Source of the DNA: a virus
Length of the DNA: 64,000 nucleotides
IMG/VR virus record: IMGVR_UViG_3300025598_000021
Direction: 5' to 3' (one strand)
Part shown: positions 5,139 to 29,255 of the stretch, one piece after another
Numbering within the stretch: the first letter of the stretch is position 1
How the letters are laid out: each line of letters begins with the position of its first letter
Notes under the pieces: generated by a model
Databases searched by the model: none
What the model saw: only the letters and a program-made list of their open reading frames with translations
What the model was told of the DNA's origin: nothing
Made by a program: the position numbers and the translations under genes

Positions 5139-5155
5139 ATAGGAGTGATTATATT

Positions 5156-5773: not shown

Positions 5774-8700
5774 ATGGCAGGTAATACAGTATTTCAGCTC
5801 AAGCGCTCTAGCGTCGCAGGCAAGAAGCCTACAACATCAACGCTAAACACCGGCGAGCTCGCGTTAAACTTAACTGACCGCAAGCTGTATTCATCTGATG
5901 GCACGAACATCTTTGAGACCGGCGCGAATCTAACTACCCTAGTAGTCTCCACAAACACGACAGTCAACAACGTCATCTTTGGCACCGGCGGCATATACGC
6001 CAACGGTTCGTTCGGTGGCTCAGGTGCGACCCTGTTCTCTAACGGCTCTTCGGTGTACTGGGGAACTGGCGCAGGCACTGGTACTGTCACACAAGTAAAC
6101 AGCGGCAACGGCCTGTTCGGCGGTCCTGTCACGACAGTCGGTACGATATACGTACTAGCGAATACCGGTATCATATCTAATACGTCCGGCGTGTTCGTAG
6201 ATCCGGTGTACATCAACACGATCACCACGCCTCCTGGATCTAACACTCAGATCGTGTTCAACGACTCAGGCAAGTCTAACGCTCTAGCGTCGTTCACGTT
6301 CAACAAGACCACAAATACTCTATTCGTATCTAACACGATAAACACAATAACTGTCGTAGCGAATACTATCAACGCTAACGGCGGCGTCGGTACTCTCGGC
6401 CAGGTACTGACGTCTAACGGCACGAGCTCGTTCTGGAGCAGTCTAAACACATCCACGCCCGTCAGACAGCAGTACACAGGCGATGGGTCTACTACGTTAT
6501 TCTTTGTTACAGGCGGTTACACGCCTGGCACTCTATCAGTATACGTCAACGGCGTACTCTCGAGAAACACTACAGAAGTAACCGCGACAAACGGCAGCTC
6601 TATAACTTTTGCGACACCGCCGAACAACGGCGCGCTGATCGACGTCATAGGATACGTAAACAACCTCCCATACTCGAACTTCGGTCCGAGCATACTAGTA
6701 TCACAACAGTACACCGCGAACGGTACGGCTAACAGCTTCGCTATAACCGGCGGATACATTCCTGGCGGTGTTCAAGTATATCTAAACGGCGTCAAACAGA
6801 TACCGTTCGTTGACGTCGATATATCTTCTGGTGCCAACGTAAACTTCTATGTCACACCGTCTAACACATGGGCGATTGACGTATTTGGGTTTCAGTCTCA
6901 AATCATATCGGCATCTTCTGTTCCTGATCCGCTGGTGGCCAACAACCTCTATATCGGTGGTAACGTAACTGTAACTAAGAGCTCGTTTACTTTTGGCAAC
7001 AGCACAGTAAACACGAATATCAACACGAGCGGCATAACGTTTGGCAACAGCGTAGCCAACACGAGCATCAACTCCAACGGCGTCAATCTAAGTAACACAG
7101 TACTCTACATCGGTAACTCTTCAGTAAACGTCGTAATCAACTCATCTTCGGTTTATGTCAACGGCGGACCACTCAGCGGCACCAACACCAATGCCCAGTA
7201 CGTCTGGTCTAACGCTCATACGTTCAACGCGAACGTAAATATTAATGGCAACGTGACCATTAGTACATCTGCCGGCATATCGGCTAATGGTTCATATGGT
7301 ACTGCTGGTCAGGCGCTCCTGTCTAACGGCTCTACAGTATACTGGGGTGCCGCTGGGGTTAACACTTCCGCGCAGTACACTTGGACTAATACACAATCAT
7401 TTAGCGCTAATGTCGTACTAAACGGTAATGTCGTTATAAGCAATACTATATACGCTAACGGCTCGGCCGGTGTTGCTGGACAGATACTGGTATCCAATGG
7501 CGCTGGAGTATACTGGTCTAACGCCGCTACTACCATCAGACAGTCTTTTACAGGTAATGGTTCAGCGACGAACTTTGCGATCACCGGCGGCTATACGCCG
7601 TTGAATCTAGACGTGTACGTTAACGGCGTCAAGCAAGAGAGTGTAGTAGACGTAAACTTAAGCTCTGGCGCTAACATAGTATTCACCGTCGCTCCTCCAA
7701 ACGGGGCATACATTGACGTCGTAGGTCTATCGCCGACTACATACACCTATGCTAACACGTCTGCGCAGTATAGCTGGACTAACACTCAGACGTTCTCTAA
7801 CCTAGTTATGATATCGACTGCAGGTATATCTGCGAACGGCTCGTATGGCACGAACGGCCAGGTACTGACGTCTAACGGCAGCTCTGTATACTGGAGCAAC
7901 AGCTCAGTGTTTGTCAGACAGACATTCACCGGTACAGGTTCTGCAACAACGTTCACGGTCACCGGCGGTTATACGCCAAACAACCTAGACGTCTATCTTA
8001 ACGGCGTGAGACAGAGCAACCCGACCGACGTCAACACCGGTTCAGGATCGATCATAGTATTCTCTACACCGCCTATTAATGGTTCTACCATTGACGTAGT
8101 AGGCGTCGTGCCCCTAAACTATACTATAACTAATACCTCTGCGCAGTACACTTGGACTAACACACACTCATTCACCAACGCCATTACGGCCAACGTCATT
8201 AACGCTAATAATATTACATCATCTAATGGTCTATACTCTATCGGTCCATTTAATGGGAGTTATTCAGATGGTATAGTCACAGACTATGTTACAGGTAATG
8301 GCAGAATAAGCGTTGGTCCATTAGATAACTTAACTTTCTATACCGGAGGCGTCGCTGCAAATCAGACGATGATTATTAATGCGACTGGTGTGTTCGTTAA
8401 TGGTACGATAAACTCATATTCTACTACATCATCTAATGGTCTATACTCTATCGGTCCATTTAATGGAAGTTATTCAGATGGTACAGTAATAGACTATGTG
8501 ACAGGTAATGGACGTATATCTGTAGGTCCAGGAGATGGTTTAAGTATATATAATGCTGGTGTCGGAGCAAATGCAATGGTCACGATACTTGCTAATGGAA
8601 ATATGGGTATAGCCTGCACCTCTCCGACTGGATTATTAGACGTATCTTCACGTGGTATCACCAAAGGTTCGATGCCAGCTGGTTCTATTATTCAAGTAGT

Positions 8701-9106
8701 AAACGTTCCATTTACGAATGTTGTTTCTACAACTTCTGCAACTGCAACTAATGTACCAAATTTTGCAGTATCAATAACGCCAAGTTTAGTATCTAGTAAA
8801 ATTCTTTTAATAATAAATTGTCAAATTGGTATGTCTACTGCGGGTGACGCCTACTGTCGCGTACTACGCAATGGAACACTTATTGACTCTAGCACTTCCG
8901 GTTCGTTTGGACATACTGCAGGCCAATATAATTTATCAACTAGTGATGCAAGTATTTGTTTTTTAGATAGTCCGGCAACAACTTCTTCTGTGACTTATCA
9001 AGTTCAATTTTGGACTGGGGCTGGAACAGTTTACGTAAATGGTAGAGGATATGCAGGAGATCAAACTACTAGCAGTGATATCACAGTCATGGAGTTAGCT
9101 CAATGA
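5774..9106 (+). CDS. long tail fibre protein with internal repeats
   Basis: FQLKRSSVAGKKPT...GELALNLTDRKLY anchor; four repeats of RQxxTGxGxxTxFxxTGGYxPxxLxVYxNGV; C-terminal GSIIQVV...ITVMELA tip domain. Confidence 0.8.
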   Translation: MAGNTVFQLKRSSVAGKKPTTSTLNTGELALNLTDRKLYSSDGTNIFETGANLTTLVVSTNTTVNNVIFGTGGIYANGSFGGSGATLFSNGSSVYWGTGAGTGTVTQVNSGNGLFGGPVTTVGTIYVLANTGIISNTSGVFVDPVYINTITTPPGSNTQIVFNDSGKSNALASFTFNKTTNTLFVSNTINTITVVANTINANGGVGTLGQVLTSNGTSSFWSSLNTSTPVRQQYTGDGSTTLFFVTGGYTPGTLSVYVNGVLSRNTTEVTATNGSSITFATPPNNGALIDVIGYVNNLPYSNFGPSILVSQQYTANGTANSFAITGGYIPGGVQVYLNGVKQIPFVDVDISSGANVNFYVTPSNTWAIDVFGFQSQIISASSVPDPLVANNLYIGGNVTVTKSSFTFGNSTVNTNINTSGITFGNSVANTSINSNGVNLSNTVLYIGNSSVNVVINSSSVYVNGGPLSGTNTNAQYVWSNAHTFNANVNINGNVTISTSAGISANGSYGTAGQALLSNGSTVYWGAAGVNTSAQYTWTNTQSFSANVVLNGNVVISNTIYANGSAGVAGQILVSNGAGVYWSNAATTIRQSFTGNGSATNFAITGGYTPLNLDVYVNGVKQESVVDVNLSSGANIVFTVAPPNGAYIDVVGLSPTTYTYANTSAQYSWTNTQTFSNLVMISTAGISANGSYGTNGQVLTSNGSSVYWSNSSVFVRQTFTGTGSATTFTVTGGYTPNNLDVYLNGVRQSNPTDVNTGSGSIIVFSTPPINGSTIDVVGVVPLNYTITNTSAQYTWTNTHSFTNAITANVINANNITSSNGLYSIGPFNGSYSDGIVTDYVTGNGRISVGPLDNLTFYTGGVAANQTMIINATGVFVNGTINSYSTTSSNGLYSIGPFNGSYSDGTVIDYVTGNGRISVGPGDGLSIYNAGVGANAMVTILANGNMGIACTSPTGLLDVSSRGITKGSMPAGSIIQVVNVPFTNVVSTTSATATNVPNFAVSITPSLVSSKILLIINCQIGMSTAGDAYCRVLRNGTLIDSSTSGSFGHTAGQYNLSTSDASICFLDSPATTSSVTYQVQFWTGAGTVYVNGRGYAGDQTTSSDITVMELAQ
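8215..8511 (+). repeat. near-identical intragenic direct repeat, 210 nt period
   Basis: tacatcatctaatggtctatactctatcggtccatttaatgg(g/a)agttattcagatggta at 8215 and 8425. Confidence 0.9.
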
Positions 9107-9414
9107 TTCATGACGCAGTTAAAATAGTTCATCCTAATGCTGTAACTATATCTACAGGTAATGATATTATAGAAGCGTGGGATGAATCTGGTAAATTAAT
9201 CAATATTGATAAAAATAAAATAGATATCGAGATCGATCGTCTAAAGCAGGAGTACTTAAAGAGCGAGTACCAGAGATCTAGAAAGACAGAGTATCCGTCT
9301 ATAGAAGACCAGCTCGACATGCTCTGGCACGCGATAGACGAGGGTAAGCTGGACAAGAATTCAGAATTCTATACGTCTATCAAGACAGTTAAAAATAAAT
9401 ATAAGAAACCATAA
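9103..9414 (+). CDS. tail fibre assembly chaperone-like protein
   Basis: YQRSRKTEYPSIEDQLDMLWH...IKTVKNKYKKP motif typical of small genes following fibre tips. Confidence 0.65.
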   Translation: MIHDAVKIVHPNAVTISTGNDIIEAWDESGKLINIDKNKIDIEIDRLKQEYLKSEYQRSRKTEYPSIEDQLDMLWHAIDEGKLDKNSEFYTSIKTVKNKYKKP

Positions 9415-9422
9415 GGTAAGTT

Positions 9423-10061
9423 ATGACACAGAACAGCCAACTAGGAACGCTAGCTCAGCTCGTCACGGTAAATACCGCGGCTAACTCTGTGCAATTTTCT
9501 AGTGGTTTTTCAGTAGGTAACGCTTCAGTTAATGTCGTTCATTCATCGACGGGATTTATAGTAAATGGAGTAAATGGATGGTTAGTACCGAGTGGTACTA
9601 TTCATACGTTTCAACAGTCTGCCGCTCCTACAGGATGGACAAAAGTTACTACATATCATGATTATGCGATGAGAATAGTATCTGGTTCTGTTGGAAATGG
9701 TGGATCTGTAGCATTCTCTTCCGCGTTTTCATCTCAGTCTGTCTCTGGTTCAATTAGTTCTGTTAGTGTTACTGGTACAAGTGATGGTCACACACTTTCT
9801 ACTTCAGAAATTCCAAGCCATCTTCATGGCGGCGGTGGTTATGAAACTATTCATATTCGTGGCAGCTTGGGTGGATATAGTAATGGTCCTCAAGCAGCTT
9901 CAGGAGGTGATGGATTTGCTGGATGGTATGATATAGGAGCGGGTGGTGGCGGTGCTCATAGCCATACATTCACGGCAACTTCTCATAATCACACATTCAC
10001 AGGTACTAATATAAATATGGCCGTAAATTATATTGACTTTATTCTAGCACAGGCAAATTAA
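9423..10061 (+). CDS. short fibre / tail-collar domain protein
   Basis: VPSGTIHTFQQSAAPTGW collar motif; HTLSTSEIPSHLH and AHSHTF His motifs typical of metal-binding fibre tips. Confidence 0.7.
   Translation: MTQNSQLGTLAQLVTVNTAANSVQFSSGFSVGNASVNVVHSSTGFIVNGVNGWLVPSGTIHTFQQSAAPTGWTKVTTYHDYAMRIVSGSVGNGGSVAFSSAFSSQSVSGSISSVSVTGTSDGHTLSTSEIPSHLHGGGGYETIHIRGSLGGYSNGPQAASGGDGFAGWYDIGAGGGGAHSHTFTATSHNHTFTGTNINMAVNYIDFILAQAN
10010..10017 (+). promoter_or_regulatory. T4-type late promoter
   Basis: TATAAATA about 50 nt before the 10065 ORF. Confidence 0.55.
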
Positions 10062-10064
10062 ATT

Positions 10065-10388
10065 ATGGAATTAAAACCAGGAAAATATTGTCCTTTACTT
10101 AAAAAAGATTGTGTGCAGTTACAGTGTAACTGGTTCATTCAAGTTCGTGGTAAAGATATGAATACTGGTAAAGAGATTGATGAATGGGGATGTTCAATTG
10201 CGTGGTTACCACATTTATTGATTGAAAACGCAGGACAAGTTAGACAAGGTGCTGCTGCCACAGAAAGTTTTAGAAACGAAATGGTTAAAGCATCAGAGAA
10301 CAGTATTCAAGCTATGTTGCAAATAGCAAATAGTAATAGAGAAGAAAATAAAACTATGAGGCTGATAGATGCGTCTGACAATAATTAG
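10065..10388 (+). CDS. conserved Cys-containing phage protein (fibre-associated)
   Basis: CPLLKKDC..LQCNWF...CSIAWLP...AATESFRNEMVK; late promoter at 10010. Confidence 0.55.
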   Translation: MELKPGKYCPLLKKDCVQLQCNWFIQVRGKDMNTGKEIDEWGCSIAWLPHLLIENAGQVRQGAAATESFRNEMVKASENSIQAMLQIANSNREENKTMRLIDASDNN

Positions 10389-10611
10389 AGAAGATAATGC
10401 TGTCTATGTAGATGGTATTGCTAAGAATATAGATTGTTCTGATTTACCTCCAGACTTTCATGCTTTACAATGGAATGGTTCTTCTGGTTGGATTGAATTT
10501 GTTAATAATTGTAAATTACAAGAAGAAATAACCGATATTTCAGATTATCAAAAATATATTGATATGTGGAATGCAAAAATCACACCAGTTTCTAATACAC
10601 AAGGTAACTAA
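10369..10611 (+). CDS. hypothetical fibre-associated protein/chaperone
   Basis: MRLTII..DNAVYVDG...HALQW....GWIEF motif; coupled to both neighbours. Confidence 0.5.
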   Translation: MRLTIIREDNAVYVDGIAKNIDCSDLPPDFHALQWNGSSGWIEFVNNCKLQEEITDISDYQKYIDMWNAKITPVSNTQGN

Positions 10612-11105
10612 TGTCACAGAACCAACAGCTCAGTGTACTCGGTCAGTTCGTAACGGCAAACGCCACGACCAACACCGCCACGTTCTCAAACGCGGTAGTG
10701 GCTGTCACCGGCTCTTTCACTAACCACACTTATGCCAACGGTGAGGGTGTTGGTACCACATACCTGATAGACGACTTCTCTCATCAGTTCAACGGGTTCT
10801 CAAACACGTTCGCGCTTACAGTAAACAGCGTATCGATTACACCATCAAATCCGAGTATGATAAATATAGTTATAGGCGGGATTCCTGTCACTCCAGCCAG
10901 CTACATTAGAGACTTTCAGAACCTACCAGAGCTATATACGTTCAAGTCTGGGTTTGTAGTAAGTGGTTCCAACGTATCATTCTCGACCGCGCCGATGCCG
11001 GGCATGAGTTTCTACGGGACCTACAGGACCAGTCAAGACGCTGCACCCAGTTTTTCATATAAGCAGACCCCGTTTTCTGCGATAAATATAATGTTTGGAG
11101 CATAG
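10611..11105 (+). CDS. virion structural protein
   Basis: DDFSHQFNG...F.LT motif; N-terminus paralogous to 9423 and 19256. Confidence 0.5.
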   Translation: MSQNQQLSVLGQFVTANATTNTATFSNAVVAVTGSFTNHTYANGEGVGTTYLIDDFSHQFNGFSNTFALTVNSVSITPSNPSMINIVIGGIPVTPASYIRDFQNLPELYTFKSGFVVSGSNVSFSTAPMPGMSFYGTYRTSQDAAPSFSYKQTPFSAINIMFGA

Positions 11106-11117
11106 AGGAAATTTACA

Positions 11118-14100
11118 ATGGCAAGAAGAGTAATTCTCGATACACAATATACGTTCTCACCATCTACTCAGACAGTGACGATTCCAAGAGCGCTCCCGCG
11201 CGAGCGCCTACTTCTTATCACCAACGTTACTACCAATCAGGTGATCTACAACTTCAGCGATCCTGCGCTCACTGCTACTTCCTATTCCATAACACAGGGA
11301 ACGAACACGACCAATCCTGTAACTACGGTGACGCTGAGCTTCAACACCACTGCGATGCTTGCCACACATCAGCTCCAGATCGTAGTAGACGAACCCGCTG
11401 AGCTGTTCGCTCCAGATGAGGCGTTTCTAGATCCGGTAGGTAAGATCAGAACATCGCAACCTCAGGCCCTTATCGATACCGACTTTGAGTACGGTCTACA
11501 GCCTACCAAGTGGGAGACACTCACTCTCCTGAATAACCGCCCGAGCTTCTACGTCAACACTCAGTCGCCATTCGCGATCAACGGTGTGTTCGCTACAAAC
11601 AGCTCTACGACAGTATACGTATCTACACCGCTGCAGACTACTACCAGTATCCCGTTCCTGATGCAGGACTCTCTGTTCCAAGGCGGTAACGGCCCGTTCC
11701 TAGTTGAAAACTCATACGCAGCTGGTTCTAGCTACACCATCTCGGCCGCGGCCGCAGGAACATACGTAGCTGGACAGGGTCTCTCTGTCGTATTAAGCGT
11801 CACATCAGGTACCGGTTTCGTGGCGGGTGCGTACGTCACGATCGCCGGCATCACCGGCTCGCTCGCAGGCTACAACACCTCTTCTTCTAATCCAGCATAC
11901 GTTCTCGTCGGCGGCACTACTTCAATTACGGTGTTGTTCCCAGGTCTGACAAGCAGCCTAGGCACATCGATCGCCGGCTCACCTACTATCCAGCAGAGCT
12001 CGTACTTCACGTACACGGCCCGCTACGCGTTCACAGGCACAACGGGTCAGGTATACAACTCAGCGCTGACACAGGTCTATACTGGCTCGTTCTACACCGG
12101 CGCCGCGTACACCCTTCCATCTCAGCCGACAGTGTCCGGCAACACAATCACGGTGGCCACCACAGAGCCTCACGGCCTTCAGGTCGGTGACGGCTGCTAT
12201 CTTGCAAACTCATCGGTGACGTCTGGCGGACCTATCAACTCGTCGTATCAGGTCGCGGCCGTGACTAACAGCACGTCGTTCCAGATTCTGACTACGACTT
12301 CTCCTTCCGGCACGGTGACTAACGCAGCGGTCTATCCAAGACCTGACGGTGTGTACCTGCATCGCGCGTTCGACGGCGGTGTTCAGTTCACGACTGGTAA
12401 CCAGGCGCACAATAACCAGACGATTCGTCAGACTCGCAGATACTTCCGCTACCAGTCTGGTAAGGGCATTCAGATCTCTACTGGTACTATTCTCAAGCCA
12501 AACATAAACGTAGACGATATCAGCTCTTCCGGAACGACGGTGACTGTAACTACTAAAGTAGCGCACCAGATCAACCCAGGCGCGACCATCGTAGTTTCTA
12601 GCGCGAACGAGACGGCGTACAACGGCACGTTCGTGGTCACATCAGTGCTGAACGCTTTCCAGTTCACCTACACCGCTCTGTCTACTCCTTCTGCGACTCC
12701 GGCTACAGGCCTTCCGACAGTTTCAGTATCTAGTTGGTACGGGGCAGTTACTCGTCTCGGACTGTTTGATAACCAGAACGGAATGTTCTTTGAGTTCGAC
12801 GGTCAGACGCTGTATGCAGTTCGCAGGAGATCCACAGACCAGATCGCAGGTTGGGTGTCAGTCACCAACGGCTCGGCGGTGATCACCGGCGCTACAGTAA
12901 ACGGTGTTACGACTAAGTTCACCAAGCAGCTCGTTCCTGGAGACTTCATCGTCATCCGCGGCTCTTCTTATCGCGTTCTCGATATCCTGTCTGACACGTC
13001 GATGACGATAACTCCTCCGTATCGCGGCGCTACTCTAGTGGCTCCAAACTACGCCATCATATCTAAGACCGTAGAGGTGCGCGTGCCTCAGTCACAGTTC
13101 AACATCGACAAGCTAGACGGCACCGGTCCTTCCGGCCTAGTTCTAGACCTATCGAAGATGCAGATGTTCTACCTCGACTACTCGTGGTACGGCGCAGGCT
13201 CACTTCGCCTAGGGTTTAGAGACAGTCAGGGTAAAGTAATCTACGTGCACAGGTTCGTCAACAACAACCAAAACACCGAAGCGTGGATGCGCTCTGGTAA
13301 CCTACCTGCGCGATACGAGACAAACACGATCGCGCCAAAGACTCTACTCGGCGCTACTATAGACGGCGTCAACACTTCGATCCTTCAGGTGGCAAACACC
13401 ACAGGATTCCCAAGCAACGGCACGCTGCTGGTCGCAGACCCAGCGTCCTACGAGTACATCAGCTATACCGGACTGTCAGGCAACACATTCACCGGTCTAA
13501 CCAGAGGCAAGCTGTCTAACACGGTCGCCTCGGTGCTGACGACGAACAACTCAGCCACTCTTACAACGACCAGCGCGGTGACCGGCGTTCAACCCGGCAT
13601 GCTCGTGACAGGTACCGGCATTCCAAACGGCACGTACGTGTACTCTATCGTTCCTGGCGCTCCTAACAACAACATCGTCATGACTCAGGCGGCGACTGCG
13701 ACCGGCACTGTCACGATAAACGTAAATCAGATGGCGTCTGCCAACGCGCCTCACACGTACTCGGCCGCGGCTCCTATCGGCGTATATCTACACGCTCCAC
13801 AGTTCGCACCGACCATCTCTCACTGGGGTACTTCGGTCATCATGGACGGTCAGTTTGACAACGATAAGTCTTTGATCTTTACGTTCGGTGAGACGATCCA
13901 GACGACTGCCGTCGCCGGAAACGTATCGTCGGTGACTGTCACGTCTGGCTCTAACACGGTCAGCATCGCTAACACGGTTCCGATCTGGCCAGGAATGCTC
14001 GTGTCCGGCACGAACATCCCAGCAGGCACGTACGTGTACTCGGTGACTCCTGGGTCTACGAACAACAGCATCGTGTTGTCGCAGGCAGGTGCTGGAACAG

Positions 14101-19255: not shown

Positions 19256-19597
19256 ATGGCACAGAACCAAAGACTAAGTTCACTCGGTGACGCGTTAAGT
19301 ACTGCGCAGTCTAACGGTCAGCTGTTAGCCGCTAATGGCGCCGGTGGATACTACTGGACCACACCTGGTGGTATACTAACTGTTAATACTACTCCACCCG
19401 CATCTGCTAACAGCGCGGACATGTGGCTGAACCCTTCTGATGGTATACTGTACACTTATATAAATACTGGATCGAGCAGTCAATGGATAGAATATGGTCC
19501 TAATGAGTTATATACTCCGACATACGTAGTCGATGGTGGCGCTGCTAATACGATCTATCAATTAACGCCATTGGTTGGCGGAGGAGCTGCTGGATGA
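19256..19597 (+). CDS. small tail-associated protein
   Basis: PP..A..ADMWLN..DGILY.Y...SSQWIE motif; late promoter at 19232. Confidence 0.55.
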   Translation: MAQNQRLSSLGDALSTAQSNGQLLAANGAGGYYWTTPGGILTVNTTPPASANSADMWLNPSDGILYTYINTGSSSQWIEYGPNELYTPTYVVDGGAANTIYQLTPLVGGGAAG

Positions 19598-19959
19598 CGA
19601 TTCAATATCAATATCGTAGAGACACGTCTGCGAATTGGACTGCAAACAATACTACGCTCGCTGTCGGCGAACCAGGTTATGAGATCGATACAGGTCGTCT
19701 CAAGATCGGCACGGGTTCTACCCCATGGAACTCACTAGCGTATACTTCAGTAAACCCTGCAGGCTCTAACACCAACGTCATATTCAACGGATCCGGATCT
19801 TTCGCAGCTAACGCTTCTTTCAGCTTCAACCAGGCTACGACGACTCTTACGATCGGTAACTCCTCAGTGAACACGTCGATGTCTAATACTGGCATAGCGA
19901 TCAACGGCGTCGCTGTTCCGTCTATAGTCACCATGCTAACGTATAACCTAGCGTTCTAA
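19594..19959 (+). CDS. Mtd_N-like (major tropism determinant N-terminal) domain protein
   Basis: QYRRDTSANW..NNT.LA.GEPGYE.DTGRLKIG.G.TPWNSLAY. Confidence 0.7.
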   Translation: MTIQYQYRRDTSANWTANNTTLAVGEPGYEIDTGRLKIGTGSTPWNSLAYTSVNPAGSNTNVIFNGSGSFAANASFSFNQATTTLTIGNSSVNTSMSNTGIAINGVAVPSIVTMLTYNLAF

Positions 19960-20621: not shown

Positions 20622-21929
20622 ATGAGTACTTTGTCTGTAACAACTATCACTTCAGCAAACGGAACGACCGATCTCACTCTATCTTCTGGCAATACGACCG
20701 CCGGACAGATGGTGGTGTTGTCGAACGGTGCCGGCGTGGTGCTAAAGAGCAACGCGACGTCTACTTCTCTTGGCGTATATTCTAACGGCACCATGACTCT
20801 GACTGGCAATCTAGTAGCCAGTAACATATCGTTTGGCACCAACACGAGCTTCGCGGCCAACGTAGGTATCGGCACGGCAAATCCAGCCGTCACGCTAGAC
20901 ATGAGTGCGAAGACAGACTCGATTCTTCTACCCATCGGTAACACTGCTAACAGAAACATTCTCACGTCCAACGGACAGCTCAGGTTCAACAACGACGTCG
21001 CTAGAAAAGAGTACTGCACTGCGGGTTTTTGGATAAACGAGCAGAACGGATATACGCAGGTCACCGGTAAGACTAGAGTAGCATTTCAGTACACTGGAGC
21101 TCTACAGTCTTGGACTATACCTTCTAACGTCAACTACATCTTCGTGAAGTTGTGGGGTGCAGGCGGTGGTGGTGGCTCATACGGCAGTTGGAGACAGGGT
21201 GCGACCGGCGGCGGTGGTGGATATTCTGAGGGAATAGTTCCGGTGGTCCCCGGTCAGACCCTGTACATTCGCGTCGGTCAGAACGGCTATGCCAGATGGT
21301 CTTCAAATAAAGCGTATCCGGACGGCGGCGCTTCTTCTACTTCTACAGGCGATAACCAGTACTGCGGAGCCGGTGGCGGCTCTACGAGCATCGCGACGCC
21401 AAACGTCAACGCAAATAACTGGTGTATGTACGCCGGAGGCGGTGGCGGTGGCGGATCCGTAAACGGTTGGGGTAGAAATCCTGGTGGCGCCGGCGGCGGT
21501 CTAACAGGTGAAGACGGTTTTACTGAGTTAACGTCCTATACACCATACGCGTACGTAGGCAAGGCAGGAACGCAGTCTGCAGGTGGAGCAGGTGGTACCG
21601 GCGGTACCGCAGTAGGTGGGGCTGGTTCAGCGAACCAAGGTGGTACTACTCAGAACGGTAACAGCTACGGTGGCGGTGGTGGCGGCGGCTACTACGGCGG
21701 TGGGTCTGGATCTTACGCAGGCTCTTCAATGGCTGGCGGCGGAGGTGGATCAGGCTACATTCATCCATCGATCATCAGAGGCGTGACTCTTACTGGCATT
21801 AGAGAATATCCAGCTATGCCTAACGACCCAGACGCTATAGCGTATTCACTTAACGGCATTAATAGGATAGGCGTCGGTGGCGACGAGGGTTCTAACGGCG
21901 GCTATGGTCTAGCCATAGTATACTACTGA
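20622..21929 (+). CDS. glycine-rich receptor-binding/adhesin-like tail protein
   Basis: NVGIGT.NP fibre repeat followed by WGAGGGGG...GGGGGGYYGGG...GGGGGSGY glycine-rich domain. Confidence 0.7.
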   Translation: MSTLSVTTITSANGTTDLTLSSGNTTAGQMVVLSNGAGVVLKSNATSTSLGVYSNGTMTLTGNLVASNISFGTNTSFAANVGIGTANPAVTLDMSAKTDSILLPIGNTANRNILTSNGQLRFNNDVARKEYCTAGFWINEQNGYTQVTGKTRVAFQYTGALQSWTIPSNVNYIFVKLWGAGGGGGSYGSWRQGATGGGGGYSEGIVPVVPGQTLYIRVGQNGYARWSSNKAYPDGGASSTSTGDNQYCGAGGGSTSIATPNVNANNWCMYAGGGGGGGSVNGWGRNPGGAGGGLTGEDGFTELTSYTPYAYVGKAGTQSAGGAGGTGGTAVGGAGSANQGGTTQNGNSYGGGGGGGYYGGGSGSYAGSSMAGGGGGSGYIHPSIIRGVTLTGIREYPAMPNDPDAIAYSLNGINRIGVGGDEGSNGGYGLAIVYY

Positions 21930-22273: not shown

Positions 22274-22936
22274 ATGTCTACGTTACAAGTCGCCAATATA
22301 TATTTTGAATCTTCTGGCAACAACAGGATCCAGTATCTTGGATCTAATAACTATTCTTTTTATGCCGGCGGCTTGCCTACACTCACTGTCAACACGTCCA
22401 CAGTACTGTTTACAGCTTCTATGTCGTTTACGAGCATCGGTGCAAACACAGCCAGCGCTAATACGCTTACAGCAAACTCGTTTACCGTCGTGAATAACTA
22501 CTTTGTAGCTAACGGCTGGGTAGGACTAGGCAACTCGACTCCGATAGATAAGTTCTACGTGCAGGGTAACATCGTCGCATCCGGCGACGTGACTACCTCA
22601 TACTCAGACGAGAGACTAAAGACTCTGCTCTATAAGATCGAGCGTCCTCTAGAAAAGATAAATAGTCTAAACGGCTGGGCCTATAGCCCATCTGCTCTAT
22701 CTCTGAAGTTAAATCCTGAACAGAAGAATGAAATAAAACTAGGTGTTATAGCGCAAGAAGTCGAGAGCGTACTGCCTGAGATAGTTTCTATCGCTCCTTT
22801 TGATAGAAACGCTAATGGAGAGTCTGTCTCTGGCGATAAATACCTTACGGTTAGTTATGATAGAATTGTACCTGTTTTAATTGAGGCTATAAAAGAACTG
22901 ACTTCTAGAATAGAGAAATTAGAATCTAGGAGGTAG
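22274..22936 (+). CDS. short tail fibre with peptidase S74 intramolecular chaperone
   Basis: YSDERLK cleavage motif, GVIAQEVESVLPEIV, V.YDRIVPVLIEAIKEL coiled coil. Confidence 0.85.
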   Translation: MSTLQVANIYFESSGNNRIQYLGSNNYSFYAGGLPTLTVNTSTVLFTASMSFTSIGANTASANTLTANSFTVVNNYFVANGWVGLGNSTPIDKFYVQGNIVASGDVTTSYSDERLKTLLYKIERPLEKINSLNGWAYSPSALSLKLNPEQKNEIKLGVIAQEVESVLPEIVSIAPFDRNANGESVSGDKYLTVSYDRIVPVLIEAIKELTSRIEKLESRR

Positions 22937-22938
22937 CT

Positions 22939-23112
22939 ATGGCGTTTAAGATTGGTTCGACTACTATAGTAAATAATAGTATTCAGATACCATGGTCTCA
23001 GATCGATCTTTCGTCGTATGGAAACTATATCAATTCAGTATATTTTACCGGTTCTGATAAGATCATCAACGTTTATAACTCCGGTTCAGTCTTATACATC
23101 ATAAGGACTTAA
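22939..23112 (+). CDS. 57-aa mini-protein, paralog 1 of the Cys-tailed peptide (not in ORF track)
   Basis: Manual translation MAFKIGSTTIVNNSIQIPWSQIDLSSYGNYINSVYFTGSDKIINVYNSGSVLYIIRT*; strong RBS AGGAGG; fills the gap exactly. Confidence 0.8.
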   Translation: MAFKIGSTTIVNNSIQIPWSQIDLSSYGNYINSVYFTGSDKIINVYNSGSVLYIIRT

Positions 23113-23116
23113 TAGA

Positions 23117-23293
23117 ATGGCTTTTAAGATCGGAAGCACTGTCGTTATCGATAATTCCGGAAACGTTCCATGGTCTACTGTAGGATCCATTCCTTCTGGT
23201 ACCGTGATATCTATATCGGCGCCGAGCAGCGGCGGTGGCGTATATAGAGTAAGTGGGTGGGACGGTTACAATCTGACTTTCTATAGATCATAG
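23117..23293 (+). CDS. 58-aa mini-protein, paralog 2 (not in ORF track)
   Basis: Manual translation MAFKIGSTVVIDNSGNVPWSTVGSIPSGTVISISAPSSGGGVYRVSGWDGYNLTFYRS*; RBS AAGGA; same N-terminus as its neighbours. Confidence 0.8.
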   Translation: MAFKIGSTVVIDNSGNVPWSTVGSIPSGTVISISAPSSGGGVYRVSGWDGYNLTFYRS

Positions 23294-23304
23294 GTCAACA
23301 CACG

Positions 23305-23562
23305 ATGGCGTTAAAAGTAAACACGACTACGGTCTTCAACAACAGCGCAAAGATTCCATACACGCAGGTGAGTGGTTTTCCACAGCTTGTGACTTCTGCT
23401 AGTTCTACTCCTACAGGTGATGGCACTAATCCGATCGGTGGCACAGGCACCTACTGCTACGCTTTCAGCTTCAGTGGTGGATCGCTAGTCGCTACATTTG
23501 ATACTAACTGTGCATGCGTTTGTGCGTGCTGCTGTTGTTGCGCCTGCTGTTGTAACTGTTAG
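23305..23562 (+). CDS. Cys-tailed peptide; candidate radical SAM substrate (RiPP-like precursor / fibre-tip subunit)
   Basis: Ends NCACVCACCCCCACCCNC*; N-terminus MALKVNTTTVFNNS..IPY paralogous to the two upstream mini-ORFs; lies near an rSAM/SPASM gene. Confidence 0.8.
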   Translation: MALKVNTTTVFNNSAKIPYTQVSGFPQLVTSASSTPTGDGTNPIGGTGTYCYAFSFSGGSLVATFDTNCACVCACCCCCACCCNC

Positions 23563-23570
23563 TTAGAGTT

Positions 23571-24458
23571 ATGGCAACTAATTTAAAGATATTCACATAT
23601 GGTTCGAACAATCCATCAATAGCGTCGATTACAGAATCATCTAATGGAAATATTGAAATAAGAATTAAGGCGGTCGATCAGCTATCTTATGACATGCCTA
23701 ATGAAGACGCGTGCAACTATATTTGGAACTTCAATCCAAAAGAATTATTAAAGTCTAAAGACCAATGTCCAAATAAAGCAGGAGTCTTTGATCTAGTAGG
23801 TTTTTCGACCAAAGACATAGTGAAGGGGACACCGATAGTTACTCCTCCGCTAGTCAATAGACTTAAGACGTACTATCAGTCTAACTTTAAAAGACTAGAG
23901 AGTAATGACTTCTTTGGCTCAATAGATATAAATCCTAAACACACAAATATATCTCTGCGCATGCAGGCCAACTGCAAGATAATTTCAAACCTATCATATG
24001 ATACCTTTGATTATGTAAAAGACAATGGTTATACGCAAGCACTTGGCACGTCTATATTAATTACGCCGCCGTCGAATAAGCACCAAGGAAACACCACGCC
24101 AGTGCCACAAGACGTGTATCCTTTTACTCTTTCATACAGTGGTCCTACGCAGATACCACTAAGTGGCGGAATATTTAATATATCATTCGACTTTGATAAT
24201 CATGGAATAAAAGGTAAAGGTGGTAAGAACAAGAATCCAGGTAAAAAACCAGGTCAAGAGTATCATGACTTGTGCGACTACAACGTAGTATATGCCAACG
24301 CTGATAAAGGTAAGATCGATCCTTCTTGTAAGATAATAAATAAAAAAGGAAGTATAAGCTTTGATCCTACTGGGCTGTCAGTAGGAGACACAGTTACGGT
24401 AGATATTGGAGTGCACTGGTTTCTACTATCAATAAGAATACAGTTTCAAATAATATAA
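23571..24458 (+). CDS. hypothetical protein with beta-rich/Ig-like C-terminus; accessory of the rSAM cluster
   Basis: 295 aa ORF between the peptide and the rSAM; C-terminal G.ISF...GL..GDTVTV.IG beta-strand pattern. Confidence 0.5.
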   Translation: MATNLKIFTYGSNNPSIASITESSNGNIEIRIKAVDQLSYDMPNEDACNYIWNFNPKELLKSKDQCPNKAGVFDLVGFSTKDIVKGTPIVTPPLVNRLKTYYQSNFKRLESNDFFGSIDINPKHTNISLRMQANCKIISNLSYDTFDYVKDNGYTQALGTSILITPPSNKHQGNTTPVPQDVYPFTLSYSGPTQIPLSGGIFNISFDFDNHGIKGKGGKNKNPGKKPGQEYHDLCDYNVVYANADKGKIDPSCKIINKKGSISFDPTGLSVGDTVTVDIGVHWFLLSIRIQFQII

Positions 24459-24475
24459 ATGATAAGGATTTTATT

Positions 24476-25792
24476 ATGTTTGAATTGATTATGATAGATC
24501 AAGAAAATAAAAGACGTTCTATATTTTATGATCCACATAAGTCTACCGTCTCTGATAAAGATGGAAAAGATATACTAATAACTGATGTTAAACCTCATTC
24601 TTGCTTTAAGAAAGCAATAGGTATATCGCCGACAAATCCTGGCTCAAAGGTATCCAAATTAAGTAAAATTCGTATCCAGTTAGGACTCGGGTGTAACTAT
24701 TCATGCTCGTACTGTCTTCAGAAAGATCAAATTAAAGATTCAACAAAGACAAGTCTTAGAGACGCTGAAATATTCATGAAGAATCTAGACAAGTGGGTAG
24801 AAGGAGCTCCAGCAGAGATTGAGTTCTGGGGAGGTGAGCCTCTTCTTTATTGGAATAAGATTAAGTTTCTTCTTGAAAAATTAACTGAAAGATTTCCGGA
24901 AGTTTCATATCTTATTATCACCAACGGAAGCTTGATAGATGACGATTTTATTGAGACCGTAGAGAAATATAACATTAGAGTCGCTATATCTCATGATGGT
25001 CCTGGTCAGTATAACCGAGGACCAGATCCATTAGACAATCCTATACAGTTTGAGATGATTAAGAAGTTCTTCGATCGTAGAAAAAACAACATGAGTTTTA
25101 ACTCAGTGATCACCCCTTCTAATATGAATCTCGATAAGATAGAACAGTTCTTTAAATCAAAGTTTGGTCAAGAAGCGAGAATAAGTTTTGAAGGTGTAGT
25201 GATAAACTACGACGACGGTGAGTCAAATACTTTTACTACTGAGCAGTATAATGAACTTTCTAAGAACGTAGCGATGTCTTGTATGAGACCATTTGAGAAT
25301 CTACCTAATACGTTCCAGATAAAGATTCGCGAATTCATGAAGACTCTACAGAATAAGTTAAGTTCTGATTCTGTATTTCAGAAGTGCGGAATGGACAGAG
25401 AAGACTATATAGCCGTAGATCTATTAGGTAACGTCATGACGTGTCAGAATACTGGTTCTACTGGAAAGCATAGAATTGGACACGTCTATTCGCTAGATAA
25501 AGTTAAACTTAATACGTCGTGGCATTGGTCGCAGAGAGAAGAATGCTCCCACTGTCCCGTGCTGCAGCTATGTGCAGGATCGTGCATGTATGTTGAGGGT
25601 CCAAGCTGGTATCACTCGTGCAACAATGAATACTACTACAACATGGGAATACTCGCAGGAGCGATGTATCATATGACTGGAATGATCTTAGAAGAAGTAA
25701 AAGGAGAGACCTGGAGGCCGGATCCAGCTGACTATGGCGTTACTATTAAAGATCATAGTCAAAATATAGTTGATGGACTTTTAGAAGTATGA
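24476..25792 (+). CDS. radical SAM enzyme with SPASM domain (peptide/protein maturase type)
   Basis: CNYSCSYC (CxxxCxxC), FWGGEPLL, ITNG, ISHDG; SPASM Cys pattern CG...C...CSHC...CAGSC...C. Confidence 0.92.
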   Translation: MFELIMIDQENKRRSIFYDPHKSTVSDKDGKDILITDVKPHSCFKKAIGISPTNPGSKVSKLSKIRIQLGLGCNYSCSYCLQKDQIKDSTKTSLRDAEIFMKNLDKWVEGAPAEIEFWGGEPLLYWNKIKFLLEKLTERFPEVSYLIITNGSLIDDDFIETVEKYNIRVAISHDGPGQYNRGPDPLDNPIQFEMIKKFFDRRKNNMSFNSVITPSNMNLDKIEQFFKSKFGQEARISFEGVVINYDDGESNTFTTEQYNELSKNVAMSCMRPFENLPNTFQIKIREFMKTLQNKLSSDSVFQKCGMDREDYIAVDLLGNVMTCQNTGSTGKHRIGHVYSLDKVKLNTSWHWSQREECSHCPVLQLCAGSCMYVEGPSWYHSCNNEYYYNMGILAGAMYHMTGMILEEVKGETWRPDPADYGVTIKDHSQNIVDGLLEV

Positions 25793-26535
25793 GACAGCTA
25801 AAGATAGATGAGACCGTTTGTCTTGATGATTTAGTAGATGTAGAAGAACTTAAGTCTCTTCATGATAGATTATGTGTGTCTATAGCCAATGCGTACGACG
25901 ACGGAAGAGTTTCAGTACAGTCTCTTGGAAATTTGCTGTCTGAGAGATATCCATATCCTAGCATACTAGATAAATTTATTCAATTTGGAAAAGCTAAAGT
26001 AAATATTCCTAAAGAAATAGACAATAATGACAAGCTATTAAGATACATAATGTTCACTGAAAAGACTACCGGAATAGCTAGTGTAATAAGTATATTTAAT
26101 TATAAAATCAGCGATGATCATAAAATTAGTAAAAACTATAAAGAATTTTATTCTATAATAGAGTGGATAAAGAAACAGGATCTATACTCAGAACTTATAC
26201 AGTGTAATCTAGTATTAAGTCAGAGCGGTGAACCAACACCTATTCACGATCATCCTAGACCAAAGAGTTTTCCAAATAGCTTTGAAGAAATAGACGAAGA
26301 GACAAGATTTTCTTTATGGATAAGACTTAACACTGATAGAAAATTATTCATGTACGATCATAAAACAAAAACTAAACACTATATAAAAGACAAAGATGGC
26401 GGTGGACTGGTGTTCTATTGGGATTCTAGCAGCTTCCATGGTGCCGATCCGTCATGGAACGCCACGTACGCGTTCGTGATAACGGGTATTCCATCAAAAA
26501 AACTGTTTGATTTTATTGATCAAAAACTCAAATAA
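25789..26535 (+). CDS. cupin/DSBH Fe(II) oxygenase-like protein
   Basis: TPIHDH...FYWDSSSFHGAD metal-ligand spacing; ATGA-coupled to the rSAM gene. Confidence 0.6.
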   Translation: MRQLKIDETVCLDDLVDVEELKSLHDRLCVSIANAYDDGRVSVQSLGNLLSERYPYPSILDKFIQFGKAKVNIPKEIDNNDKLLRYIMFTEKTTGIASVISIFNYKISDDHKISKNYKEFYSIIEWIKKQDLYSELIQCNLVLSQSGEPTPIHDHPRPKSFPNSFEEIDEETRFSLWIRLNTDRKLFMYDHKTKTKHYIKDKDGGGLVFYWDSSSFHGADPSWNATYAFVITGIPSKKLFDFIDQKLK

Positions 26536-26563: not shown

Positions 26564-27247
26564 ATGTCAACATTAACGGTAGGTAACATCACAGGAACGC
26601 CTATAATTAGTTCTGGACCTATAACAGGTACCGGTGATTTTACTACTACCGGCAATATAACTGCCAATAATCTAACAGCTAATGGTACTTTTACCGGTAA
26701 TAATCTTACAGGTAATAGCTTTTCTGGTAATAATTTTTACGGCATCAACGCATCGATTAATACTCTGCAGCCAAGATCTGGTAATCTTATAAGTGTTCCT
26801 GTTGGTTATAATATCTATTCTCCAGGTACTCCTGTGCAGACCGTTATAAACAGAGTCACGTCTTCATATAGTACATCGTCTTCAACTCTTAGTAATTTTT
26901 TTAATACTTCTATAACTATTAAAACGGTGGCTCCTATAATTATGGTTTTTCTACACTGTAAGCAGAGGTGTGACGTTAGTGGAACTTGGAATCTAGCGTA
27001 TTTTCAGATATACGAAAATCTTACAGCAACACCGGTAGCGTATTCTGGATATAACGGTGTTAACGCTTCTGGTTGGATTCATGATTATACTACAGAAAAA
27101 CCGTTCTATGCTCCTGGAGCTATAGGAACAACATATACATTTGCGCTTAATGTCGGTTCGTATAGTGGAACACAGTATTTTAATTCTCCATCAAACTCAT
27201 CAGATGATGGTTATGCAATAATGAAATTAACAGAGATAGCGAGATAA
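26564..27247 (+). CDS. tail fibre tip protein
   Basis: MSTLTVGNI start; PGTPVQTV...MKLTEIA tip domain like the C-terminus of 5774. Confidence 0.65.
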   Translation: MSTLTVGNITGTPIISSGPITGTGDFTTTGNITANNLTANGTFTGNNLTGNSFSGNNFYGINASINTLQPRSGNLISVPVGYNIYSPGTPVQTVINRVTSSYSTSSSTLSNFFNTSITIKTVAPIIMVFLHCKQRCDVSGTWNLAYFQIYENLTATPVAYSGYNGVNASGWIHDYTTEKPFYAPGAIGTTYTFALNVGSYSGTQYFNSPSNSSDDGYAIMKLTEIAR

Positions 27248-27249: not shown

Positions 27250-27633
27250 ATGAAATACACTATAATAGAAGCTCTTTCTGTTTTATCTCCTGGTTCAGAA
27301 TGGAGCATAAGAGACACTGATTACTCTTCAATCCAATGGATGAGTCCAGGTTATCCACCTTATTTAGAATCTCTAGAATCTAAAGTATTAGAACTAAACA
27401 CTGCTGAGCCGATGAGACTGCTTAGGTTGGAACGAGACAGAAGATTGTCAGAAACAGACTGGATGGCCGTGTCTGACAGGATTATGACAGACGATCAAAA
27501 GACTTATAGGCAGGCTCTTAGAGACCTACCAGATAAGATAACAACTTCTCCAAAATTAAATGAAATTTTTGAGCTAGATGTGTCCAGCGTAGACTGGCCT
27601 GTTCTGGGAAATACTGCGACGGCGACTAATTAA
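27250..27633 (+). CDS. tail fibre assembly chaperone
   Basis: LRLERDRRLSETDW...YRQALRDLP...V.WP. Confidence 0.75.
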   Translation: MKYTIIEALSVLSPGSEWSIRDTDYSSIQWMSPGYPPYLESLESKVLELNTAEPMRLLRLERDRRLSETDWMAVSDRIMTDDQKTYRQALRDLPDKITTSPKLNEIFELDVSSVDWPVLGNTATATN

Positions 27634-27680: not shown

Positions 27681-29255
27681 TTGGCAACGACTTATCAGAA
27701 AATCTCGGGTTTAACCACCGCTTCTGGCGCGGGTGCGAACGATAGATTCGTAATCCTAACCAATGCCACGTCTACGCCTCTCCTGCAGACGATATCCTAC
27801 CCTGTAGTTCTTACTACAATATCTGGCAGCTTCGTCAACACGACGTCTCCTATTATCTCCAATTCTATTACCGTAAATACTTACTTCGCGGCTAATACCT
27901 CAGGCACATACACGGTAAACGCCTACGCCAATAACCTGACGGTAAACACCGCAAACGTCAACGTCAAGCTACAGGTCGGCAACGCTGCCGTAGGATTCGC
28001 GTTCGGCGCCGCGGCTTTGGTTCAGGTAGACGGCAACCAGAATACGTATGTACAGACTATCCTACAGAACGCTAACTCCGGCACAAACGCTACTACCGAT
28101 CTAATACTCACGGCCGATACTGGCACAGACTCTATAAACTATCTAGACATCGGCATCAACAGTTCTACTTATTCTAATACGCAGTATACCATCGGCAGCC
28201 CACTAGACGGCTACATATACGCTAGTAACTCTAATCTAACGATAGGCACCGCCACGGCGAATGAGCTAGTATTTCACGCTAACGGTACCACGAGCTCAGA
28301 TAGAAAATTAACCGTAAACGCCACTTCAGTATACGTATCAAATAACGTAAGCTTTATATCAAATTCCGGAACGTTCTATGGAGCGGTGACTGTAGGAACG
28401 AACCTAACGGTCAATGGAAACTTCTCAGTAACTGGCAACGTAACGTTCGCCGGTAACACCACGTTTATTAACGCCACCGTCATAACCACTAACGACAAGA
28501 ACTTCATACTAGCAAACAATGCCGCCACTGCTCTAGCGGCTGACGGTGCAGGTATCATCATTGGATCTTATGCCAACCTCGTATATGACAACGTAACAAA
28601 CTCTTGGCAGTCCAACGTAGGTATCACGCCTCTCACTAATAACTTAAATCTCGGCAATACCAGTCTAGTATGGAATATATTCTCTAATAATATCACAGCT
28701 GCAAACGTTCTAGTCGGCACTACTTCGGGCTTCACTAGAGCTAACTCTTCAGCGGTCTCAGTAGGTAACTCTACGGTAAACACCACCATCACGTCTACGA
28801 CTGTCACAATAGCAGCAAACAATCTAGGTGGATTCTACGTCGGTAACACCGTCAGTAACTCGTACGTAAACGCTACTGGATTCTTTACCACCGGTAAGAT
28901 CGGCGTCTCTAACGCTGCTTCTTCTGACACGATCAGAGTCGAGGGAACGATCAGCGCTCTAGCGTCACTCGCGGTCAGCAACTCGTCCGGCGTCATTACT
29001 CTCGCTAATACGTCTGGTCTCTTTATAAATAATGCATCTGGTTCAATAAACGTTGGTAACTCAACGGTAAATACATTTTCAAATTCTACTTACTTATTCT
29101 CAGGTAACTCGACATTCTACGGATTTGTCAATTCAACTGCAGAAGCTATAGTGAGTCCTACCAGTAATACGATAATTACCGCAAACGGAATAACCACAAA
29201 CGGAATACCGTATCCTACTGTAGTAACAATGTTAACTTATAATCTAGCCTTCTAA
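27681..29255 (+). CDS. tail fibre protein (TTG start)
   Basis: KISGLT N-terminal motif, beta-repeat N/T/S-rich body, C-terminal VTMLTYNLAF; late promoter at 27645. Confidence 0.7.
   Translation: MATTYQKISGLTTASGAGANDRFVILTNATSTPLLQTISYPVVLTTISGSFVNTTSPIISNSITVNTYFAANTSGTYTVNAYANNLTVNTANVNVKLQVGNAAVGFAFGAAALVQVDGNQNTYVQTILQNANSGTNATTDLILTADTGTDSINYLDIGINSSTYSNTQYTIGSPLDGYIYASNSNLTIGTATANELVFHANGTTSSDRKLTVNATSVYVSNNVSFISNSGTFYGAVTVGTNLTVNGNFSVTGNVTFAGNTTFINATVITTNDKNFILANNAATALAADGAGIIIGSYANLVYDNVTNSWQSNVGITPLTNNLNLGNTSLVWNIFSNNITAANVLVGTTSGFTRANSSAVSVGNSTVNTTITSTTVTIAANNLGGFYVGNTVSNSYVNATGFFTTGKIGVSNAASSDTIRVEGTISALASLAVSNSSGVITLANTSGLFINNASGSINVGNSTVNTFSNSTYLFSGNSTFYGFVNSTAEAIVSPTSNTIITANGITTNGIPYPTVVTMLTYNLAF

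Follow-up and report, generated by a model that had tools for sequence, protein, structure and literature searches.

Several described systems join a radical S-adenosylmethionine (rSAM) enzyme carrying a SPASM domain to a Cys-rich substrate. In the ranthipeptide and sactipeptide maturases (PapB/freyrasin, CteB/SCIFF and NxxcB), the gene for such an RS-SPASM enzyme adjoins that of the substrate; NxxcB is a Cys-Asn beta-thioether synthase that tolerates Ala, Gln and Asp as acceptor (PMC9389541). Thioethers made by rSAM enzymes are also found on whole proteins, in the pairs QhpD/QhpC and CrpC/CrpA, the latter reported in 2026 (PMC13692751). Here we analyze a cassette of seven genes at positions 22274-26535 of a 64,000-nucleotide stretch of viral DNA, hereafter the window (IMG/VR record IMGVR_UViG_3300025598_000021), in which an enzyme of this architecture is encoded within a tail-fiber cluster together with a small protein that ends in a Cys-rich tail. 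Phage fibers are not known to mature by means other than folding, trimerization, chaperones and self-cleavage. We propose that the cassette is a virion-maturation set, in which the rSAM enzyme would modify the Cys tail of a fiber-type protein through thioether links, producing a stapled tip with the participation of a helper protein and an oxygenase; we assign this reading a probability of roughly 60%.

Relative to PapB, CteB and NxxcB, the phage substrates differ in being fiber proteins or fiber-type mini-proteins with strictly alternating Cys-X residues, not CxxxD/E or NxxC cores. The phage system is further set apart from PapB and CteB in that no recognition element (RRE) of the kind used for peptides that are made on ribosomes and modified after translation (RiPPs), no leader peptidase and no exporter was detected, and in that its enzyme scores 4-7 times under the family cut-offs. 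QhpD/QhpC and CrpC/CrpA provide the closest functional analogy, in which a SPASM rSAM enzyme acts on a folded or large Cys-rich protein and not on a short secreted peptide. These two pairs are, however, cellular (one substrate is a subunit of an amine dehydrogenase, the other a methanogen protein whose role is not known), phages go unmentioned in PMC13692751, and the likeness does not extend to family membership at the sequence level. The anaerobic sulfatase-maturating enzymes (anSMEs) share the RS-SPASM architecture, but the phage locus has neither a sulfatase gene nor the C/S-x-P/A-x-R motif. Among phage components, the S74 chaperone and Hint modules of fibers offer a parallel, as a removable C-terminal module would expose a functional end; they differ in relying on self-cleavage alone, without enzymatic side-chain chemistry on fibers.

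The initial annotation of this DNA, which took the cassette to target a Cys-tailed virion peptide, had named a check in advance: homologous rSAMs should be paired with (CX)n-tailed proteins inside tail loci. They are. A collection of 5.8 billion proteins holds more than 2260 rSAM homologs. Scanning viral sequences with the window rSAM as the lone query gave no match, and a profile of the rSAM family was needed; with this profile we gathered 80 loci from IMG/VR and 80 from bacterial genomes. A run was counted when (CX)≥3 occurred in a same-strand open reading frame (ORF) no more than 4 kb upstream of the rSAM gene. Such an ORF is present in 51 of the 60 non-redundant viral loci whose upstream sequence extends to 1.5 kb or more, compared with 21 of the 4797 other ORFs of the same loci, a background count that may itself contain a few chance runs. 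Bacterial-genome loci, which are prophage-like (Rhodobacterales, Bradyrhizobium, Magnetospirillum, Comamonadaceae and others), have a run upstream of the rSAM gene in 57 of 73 cases. The co-occurrence of the rSAM gene with a (CX)n run is far above chance. Rhodobacterales prophage loci are numerous in the sample; the association nonetheless holds in all major clades. In a maximum-likelihood tree of 148 rSAMs, it is spread over the whole family with the exception of two clades, and the window rSAM groups with those of loci L003, L004 and L006 (SH-aLRT 97).

The rSAM family is also carried by the cultured phages JWF, 2-1 and RSP15. Achromobacter phage JWF encodes a full-length homolog (36% identity) in its tail-tip module, after the central fiber J and the 483-amino-acid (aa) fiber gp028, which reads ...NCNCDCNCNCSC and then continues into a Hint domain. 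Ralstonia phage RSP15 likewise has an rSAM homolog, encoded after gp048, a protein that carries the annotation side tail fiber and terminates in NCQCGN. Both enzymes are 36-37% identical to the window rSAM and lie one or two genes past the Cys-run fiber. Phages of unrelated types (with myo-, sipho- and Ackermannviridae-type genomes) carry modules of this kind in their tail-fiber clusters, and the linkage of rSAM and Cys run is conserved over more than 100 loci and several phage morphotypes.

The two exceptional clades have gene surroundings of their own. One consists of Comamonadaceae rSAMs in a non-phage context, found with an S/T-D-C-G-C peptide and a protein of ~770 aa. At L084, L088, L095 and L113 (Variovorax, Ramlibacter and other Comamonadaceae), which form a well-supported clade, the ~770-aa protein and a peptide of 65-118 aa, in which the S/T-D-C-G-C motif occurs once, lie directly upstream of the rSAM gene. 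These loci resemble an ordinary uncharacterized RiPP cluster and represent a possible cellular relative of the phage system. The second clade (L046, L048, L053 and L056) occurs among FAD-enzyme-like and 2-oxoglutarate (2OG)-like genes, which are neighbors in L048 and its clade relatives. At L056 (positions 3-713), ~5 kb upstream of the divergent-clade rSAM, a 236-aa protein contains 25 Cys-X units arranged as a ladder, the majority of them Cys-Lys (NCNCKCKCQCKCKC...). Elsewhere in the family, a second, shorter rSAM paralog (330-360 aa, without the N-terminal extension) is encoded right before the full-length enzyme (L020, L050, L054, L055, L058, L121-L126, L134, L136 and L137), and at L073 two complete modules share a single contig. 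An unusual arrangement is seen downstream of the rSAM at L072 (positions 4561-5466), where a 301-aa fiber has its S74 chaperone domain followed, at the extreme end, by the short Cys run GKCSNCSCGSK.

Among 105 distinct Cys runs with at least four Cys, 83 terminate within eight residues of the stop codon. Most of the others abut a Hint module, whose Pfam profile begins at the Cys after the run (47.5 bits in JWF gp028, 34.5 bits at L010); self-cleavage would thus again leave the run C-terminal. Two types of carrier can be distinguished. Mini-proteins of 55-110 aa share the motif MAYK(V/I)G(S/T)T.VID..G.I.W.R, followed by a variable linker and a beta-hairpin just ahead of the tail, and are typically encoded directly after an S74-chaperone fiber, as in the window. 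The second type comprises real fibers of 300-730 aa. One of these, at L050, combines a T7 tail-fiber N-terminal domain (72 bits), collagen triple-helix repeats (108 bits) and a CBM_5_12 domain and ends in NCNCDCACACACNCDCNCND; the L042 fiber is similar, with collagen repeats. As collagen repeats imply trimers and attachment to the tail is through the N-terminal domain, the distal tip would bring three Cys tails together. The fused fibers lack the N-terminal motif of the mini-proteins, which argues that this motif is a docking element rather than a RiPP leader. Composition is likewise biased: Asn directly precedes the first Cys in 76% of runs, and the X positions are occupied by Asn (50%), Ala (15%), Asp (12%) and Gln (3%). 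A run of the form (NC)n doubles as a set of overlapping N-x-x-C motifs.

Within the window, the cassette consists of seven ORFs in series, all on the plus strand and spaced by 2-28 nucleotides or overlapping; the gene set proposed by the initial annotation for this interval, including three tandem mini-proteins of which the last is Cys-tailed, is fully recovered. The presumed substrate is the 85-aa product of 23305-23562, recognized through its homologs and a family alignment (L009, 3e-11; L014, 1e-10; L031, 7e-7 by phmmer). It is composed of the N-terminal motif, a linker, the beta-hairpin FSFSGGSLVATF and the tail NCACVCACCCCCACCCNC, encoded at 23506-23559, so that the C-terminus reads N-C-A-C-V-C-A-C-C-C-C-C-A-C-C-C-N-C-stop, with 12 Cys among the last 17 residues. 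Tail Cys codons are a mixture of TGT and TGC, and Tandem Repeats Finder reports no repeat, which together rule out a DNA microsatellite as the origin of the tail. Upstream lie two Cys-less proteins assigned by phmmer and alignment: one of 57 aa (22939-23112), with the motif MAFKIGSTT.V.NS..IPW and a hairpin, and one of 58 aa (23117-23293). The three mini-proteins are paralogs, with mutual phmmer matches of 5.7e-6 to 9e-4 and the common N-terminal motif MA(F/L)K(I/V)..T.V..NS...P(W/Y). The 58-aa protein also matches the N-terminal part of Cys-tailed proteins in at least 15 other loci (phmmer E 1e-7 to 3e-4), and Cys-less paralogs are present at L009, L014 and L038 as well. A tblastn search with the 85-aa protein gave no match, and no Pfam or NCBIfam (June 2026) model matches it.

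The enzyme gene (24476-25792, plus strand) encodes 438 aa and was assigned by PF04055, phrog_1802 (4e-59) and its Cys motifs. Its score against Radical_SAM (PF04055) is 50.1 bits, well above the cut-off of 29.5, and the cluster-binding C73xxxC77xxC80 is invariant or nearly so in 30 homologs. The pattern expected of a SPASM domain with two auxiliary clusters, Cx9-15Gx4C ... Cx2Cx5Cx3C ... C, is complete (C304-x13-G318-x4-C323, C357xxC360x5C366x3C370 and C382), and these seven Cys are likewise invariant or nearly so among the 30 homologs, which are 40-56% identical. This agrees with the initial annotation, which had read a CxxxCxxC motif and a full SPASM domain; the Pfam SPASM model gave no match at E ≤ 0.1. 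Curated families recognize the enzyme only at a distance. The best NCBIfam match is PapB (NF047865; 95.6 bits against a cut-off of 340), and the SCIFF maturase TIGR03974 (63.5 against 425), anSME TIGR03942 (55.7 against 349) and CcpM are also among the matches, with all scores 4-7 times under the cut-offs. The neighboring ORFs of the window include no SCIFF peptide or sulfatase, and Pfam and NCBIfam (June 2026) hold no model for the clade. The solved structures nearest to the family profile are 8VPO (3.5e-21), traced to a study of cyclopropyl synthases of the radical SAM type (PMC10878394), anSME (PDB 4K36-4K39; 8e-17) and CteB (5WGG; 4e-15); the profile aligns through the SPASM regions of all three, and the anSME alignment covers residues 70-377. 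Judged by its sequence, the 438-aa protein belongs to an uncurated clade and is an RS-SPASM enzyme that modifies peptides or proteins.

On the basis of gene linkage, motifs and predicted folds, we infer an order of events in which the cassette would be expressed together with the late tail-fiber genes. The 85-aa protein would be a small fiber-type protein, with which the two Cys-less paralogs may assemble, possibly as a hetero-trimer. Its C-terminal (Cys-X)9 tail would be the substrate of the adjoining RS-SPASM enzyme, and action of the enzyme on the Cys tail of a fiber or fiber-type protein is the best-supported part of the proposal. By analogy with the nearest characterized SPASM enzymes, a tail thiol would be bound on an auxiliary [4Fe-4S] cluster while the 5'-deoxyadenosyl radical takes a hydrogen from a neighboring residue. 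Sulfur-to-carbon (thioether) bonds would then form repeatedly along the tail, within one chain or possibly between the chains of the trimer, to yield a covalently stapled fiber tip resistant to protease and reduction. Repeated thioether formation is the most likely chemistry by this analogy, since the functional relatives acting on Cys-rich substrates (PapB, CteB, NxxcB, QhpD and CrpC) make S-C bonds, and since the Asn before the first Cys and the Asn, Ala, Asp and Gln at X correspond to the acceptors that NxxcB uses or tolerates. The remaining two products of the cassette would assist: a 295-aa immunoglobulin (Ig)-like protein as a dedicated helper, whether a chaperone/adaptor or a co-assembled structural partner, and an oxygenase-fold protein that would add a second, oxidative modification, speculatively Asn/Asp hydroxylation or sulfur oxidation. 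Incorporation of the modified protein into the virion is likewise expected on these grounds.

The helper candidate (295 aa, 23571-24458, plus strand) was assigned by reciprocal hidden Markov model (HMM) matches and an AlphaFold2 (AF2) model. It belongs to a family of 240-340-aa proteins made up of clusters c3, c27 and c32, which are tied together by reciprocal HMM matches (c27 against c3). This family is the most conserved partner of the rSAM, being present in 54 of the 73 bacterial-genome loci. Its N-terminal part is variable, and conservation is limited to a C-terminal domain (approximately residues 183-295 of the window protein) that is modeled with pLDDT >90 as an Ig-like beta-sandwich, in line with the beta-rich accessory protein described at the outset. 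The domain resembles an intimin Ig-like domain (VIA Z 9.7, root-mean-square deviation [rmsd] 2.5 over 87 residues) and pilus chaperones (Z 8.3-8.8), and a search of the Atlas returned only weak Ig-like leads; the modeled fold does not reveal the function of the protein. The 295-aa protein has no family match, and Pfam and NCBIfam (June 2026) are without a model for its family. When the 295-aa and 248-aa proteins were compared pairwise by BLASTP with the RSP15 and JWF neighbors, no match was significant, and the kinship of the accessory proteins emerged only with HMMs. A predicted complex of the accessory and 85-aa proteins scored 0.00, a value computed without control pairs that weighs on neither side of the question of binding.

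The last gene of the cassette (25789-26535, plus strand), whose start overlaps the rSAM stop by 4 nucleotides, encodes a 248-aa protein assigned through its AF2 model and structure matches. The model (pLDDT 81) is a double-stranded beta-helix of the 2OG-oxygenase type. It matches 2OG oxygenases with a Foldseek E of 5e-6 and a VIA Z of 11.5 (rmsd 3.9 over 171 residues) to 6N1F, followed by PHD2, P4H and proline 3-hydroxylase (Z 11.0-11.4), and all of the top 50 rows are 2OG oxygenases. Among 1.8 billion representatives, 21 remote homologs were found, which conserve the pattern H-x-(D/H)...H...R. In the window protein, the putative metal ligands are H153, H155 and H217 (H153-D-H155...H217), a 3-His variant common to its two closest homologs, in place of the usual HxD/E...H triad, and a Val occupies the column that is Arg, the 2OG-binding basic residue, in 90% of the family. 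The His-triad oxygenase of the initial annotation therefore stands at the level of fold and ligands, with the qualification that the triad is this variant and the conserved Arg is replaced. Pfam and NCBIfam gave no match, and a word-indexed search returned the protein itself alone.

An oxygenase is a recurrent member of these loci. Cluster c2, which corresponds to PF13759 (putative 2OG-Fe(II) oxygenase), occurs in 44 of the 73 bacterial-genome loci. The window cassette has no adjoining c2 gene; the 248-aa protein holds the position that c2 takes in the closest relative, L003, and PF13759-type matches elsewhere in this phage genome are weak and away from the cassette. The closest homolog of the 248-aa protein, P0122, is likewise encoded directly after an rSAM, and the module there is complete, comprising a Cys-tailed protein of 192 aa along with three genes of the c3 type and two of the c2 type. 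From the shared position and the P0122 module, we conclude that an oxygenase slot belongs to the system and is filled by different oxygenase families. By hhalign, the 248-aa protein has no relation to the PF13759 oxygenase or to other neighbor families, and it was set aside as a member of these. At L003 (positions 8071-12992), the rSAM and PF13759 oxygenase are followed by at least five further small genes, several with 2OG-oxygenase-like motifs (e.g., ...IFDGDIYHSVGKP); this row of genes suggests a larger, swappable block of tailoring enzymes.

Other accounts of the cassette deserve consideration. The mini-proteins could be leader-core precursors of a diffusible RiPP, freed at lysis to serve as a bacteriocin, signal or metallophore, with the cassette acting as an auxiliary phage gene set. 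The layout is indeed RiPP-like, pairing an rSAM/SPASM gene with that of a short peptide whose N-terminus is conserved and whose C-terminus is variable and Cys-rich, and the loci of the related bacterial clade have the look of an ordinary RiPP cluster. Neither the window cassette nor the recurrent clusters of neighboring genes, however, contain a leader peptidase, transporter or immunity gene, as the initial annotation had pointed out for the first two, so that beyond a precursor-like peptide the elements of a canonical RiPP cluster (RRE, peptidase and exporter) went undetected. The N-terminus expected of a leader is retained by the Cys-less paralogs, and fibers of 300-730 aa bear the same tail without it. 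Because the tail is carried at the distal C-terminus of trimeric fibers or placed before Hint, because no peptidase, transporter or RRE was found, and because the modules lie in the tail-fiber clusters of myo-, sipho- and Ackermannviridae-type genomes throughout, we favor a structural target over a secreted RiPP, in agreement with the initial proposal, and consider a diffusible product quite improbable.

Two further possibilities leave the fiber tip as the site of action and change what happens there; we regard each as unlikely, though somewhat less so than the diffusible peptide. A metal- or Fe-S-loaded tip was already named as an option by the initial annotation. Phage fibers can hold metal: in T4, iron is bound by the HxH motifs of gp37 and gp12. 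The alternating Cys of three parallel chains might similarly hold metals or Fe-S clusters on the fiber axis, in which case the rSAM enzyme would not be a modifier or would prepare or load the tail. Alternating Cys share one face of a beta-strand, the tails terminate trimeric collagen-repeat fibers, and the long Cys-Lys ladder of L056 resembles a metal-binding repeat. Metal binding is also raised for the Cys-rich rSAM substrate CrpA (PMC13692751). Simple metal binding would, however, make the tight and nearly universal linkage with an rSAM/SPASM enzyme superfluous, and the strong preference for Asn, Asp and Ala at X, like that for Asn ahead of the initial Cys, is more readily read as the mark of an acceptor residue than of ligand geometry. 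Alternatively, the enzyme may carry out other rSAM chemistry on the tail, such as anSME-like conversion of Cys to formylglycine, epimerization, C-C cross-linking or C-terminal oxidative decarboxylation, with the oxygenase acting on the product. The ranking of solved relatives, with a cyclopropyl synthase (8VPO) best and anSME second (8e-17), is compatible with this, as are the failure of the rSAM to reach any curated family cut-off and the annotation given so far to a phage homolog, that of JWF, which its depositors named "anaerobic sulfatase-maturating enzyme". Against it, the anSME target C/S-x-P/A-x-R is absent from the tails, and the strict conservation of many Cys fits a role for Cys as partner in repeated cross-links.

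Several observations weigh against thioether stapling of the fiber tip. With scores far below every family cut-off, the chemistry of the curated maturases is not transferable to this enzyme. Neither the rSAM nor the accessory protein yielded an RRE or a PqqD-like domain in Pfam, HMM and structure searches, although absence judged by sequence is not conclusive. Relatives in non-phage bacterial clusters with S/T-D-C-G-C peptides indicate that the rSAM family is not intrinsically linked to virions. An O2-dependent oxygenase next to an O2-sensitive rSAM enzyme is awkward, and the window 248-aa protein, with its altered residues, could be inactive or depend on a different co-substrate. Nor does the model account for the two mini-proteins that have no Cys tail. 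Extending fiber-tip stapling beyond this phage is a more tentative step, to which we give slightly less than even odds: many tailed phages and prophages of Proteobacteria may staple their distal fiber tips by means of a dedicated rSAM/SPASM enzyme, in many cases accompanied by an Ig-like helper and a 2OG-type oxygenase, that forms RiPP-type thioethers in a (Cys-X)n tail.

The virus that carries the cassette is a T4-like myovirus whose neck protein shares 63% identity with its counterpart in Stenotrophomonas phage DLP6 and 57% with the one in Caulobacter phage Cr30; its IMG/VR record spans 125.5 kb, with an estimated completeness of 74%. The cassette opens with a 220-aa short tail fiber with a C-terminal S74-type intramolecular chaperone (22274-22936, plus strand; PF13884, 1.1e-9), in which Peptidase_S74 scores 38.9 bits over residues 111-171 (cut-off 22) and which matches many PHROG tail-fiber families, the best at 1e-25. 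By phmmer, it also matches the upstream fibers of L003, L004, L014, L018, L020, L022, L025, L036, L052 and L068, and in many related loci the same fiber type stands immediately 5' of the Cys-tailed protein. Downstream of the cassette, on the same strand, are a 227-aa protein (26564-27247) and a tail-fiber assembly chaperone (27250-27633; PF16778, 4.7e-13, 49.2 bits; phrog_4912, 1.2e-12). The initial annotation had placed fiber and chaperone genes on both flanks, beginning with the S74-chaperone fiber; this is upheld for the S74 fiber and the PF16778 chaperone, and the 227-aa protein, which has no family match, is fiber-like in composition only. A DNA search of the region against 50,697 phage records gave no match, and a promoter and terminator scan found nothing exceeding shuffled expectation. 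Further along the fiber cluster, two fiber-like proteins that are otherwise unlike (19594-19959 and 27681-29255) both terminate in VTMLTYNLAF, which may be a shared docking or chaperone-recognition end. A 435-aa protein in the same cluster (20622-21929) is extremely Gly-rich over its C-terminal two thirds (GGGGGGS, GGGGGGYYGGGSGS).

No description of rSAM-modified phage fibers or of a Cys-X tail family was found in the literature searched, which covered few subscription journals, and within the same scope we found no characterized rSAM-matured phage tail component, as the initial annotation had supposed. A different rSAM, from a cyanophage, has been labeled an antibiotic-synthesis gene. What is new here, we infer, is the application to virion fibers of an RS-SPASM Cys chemistry known elsewhere. 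If true, this would be the first enzyme-installed side-chain cross-linking in a viral host-recognition organelle and would define a new, large class of rSAM substrates in which the target is a protein and not a peptide. The presence of the system in the cultured phages JWF, 2-1 and RSP15 makes the hypothesis directly testable, and enzymatically modified alternating-Cys tails could find use as portable tags for cross-linking. A dedicated step of radical chemistry would add a layer to virion assembly, fiber stability or receptor binding, extend the rSAM/SPASM "RiPP" chemistry to large viral structural proteins and explain why phages carry such enzymes.

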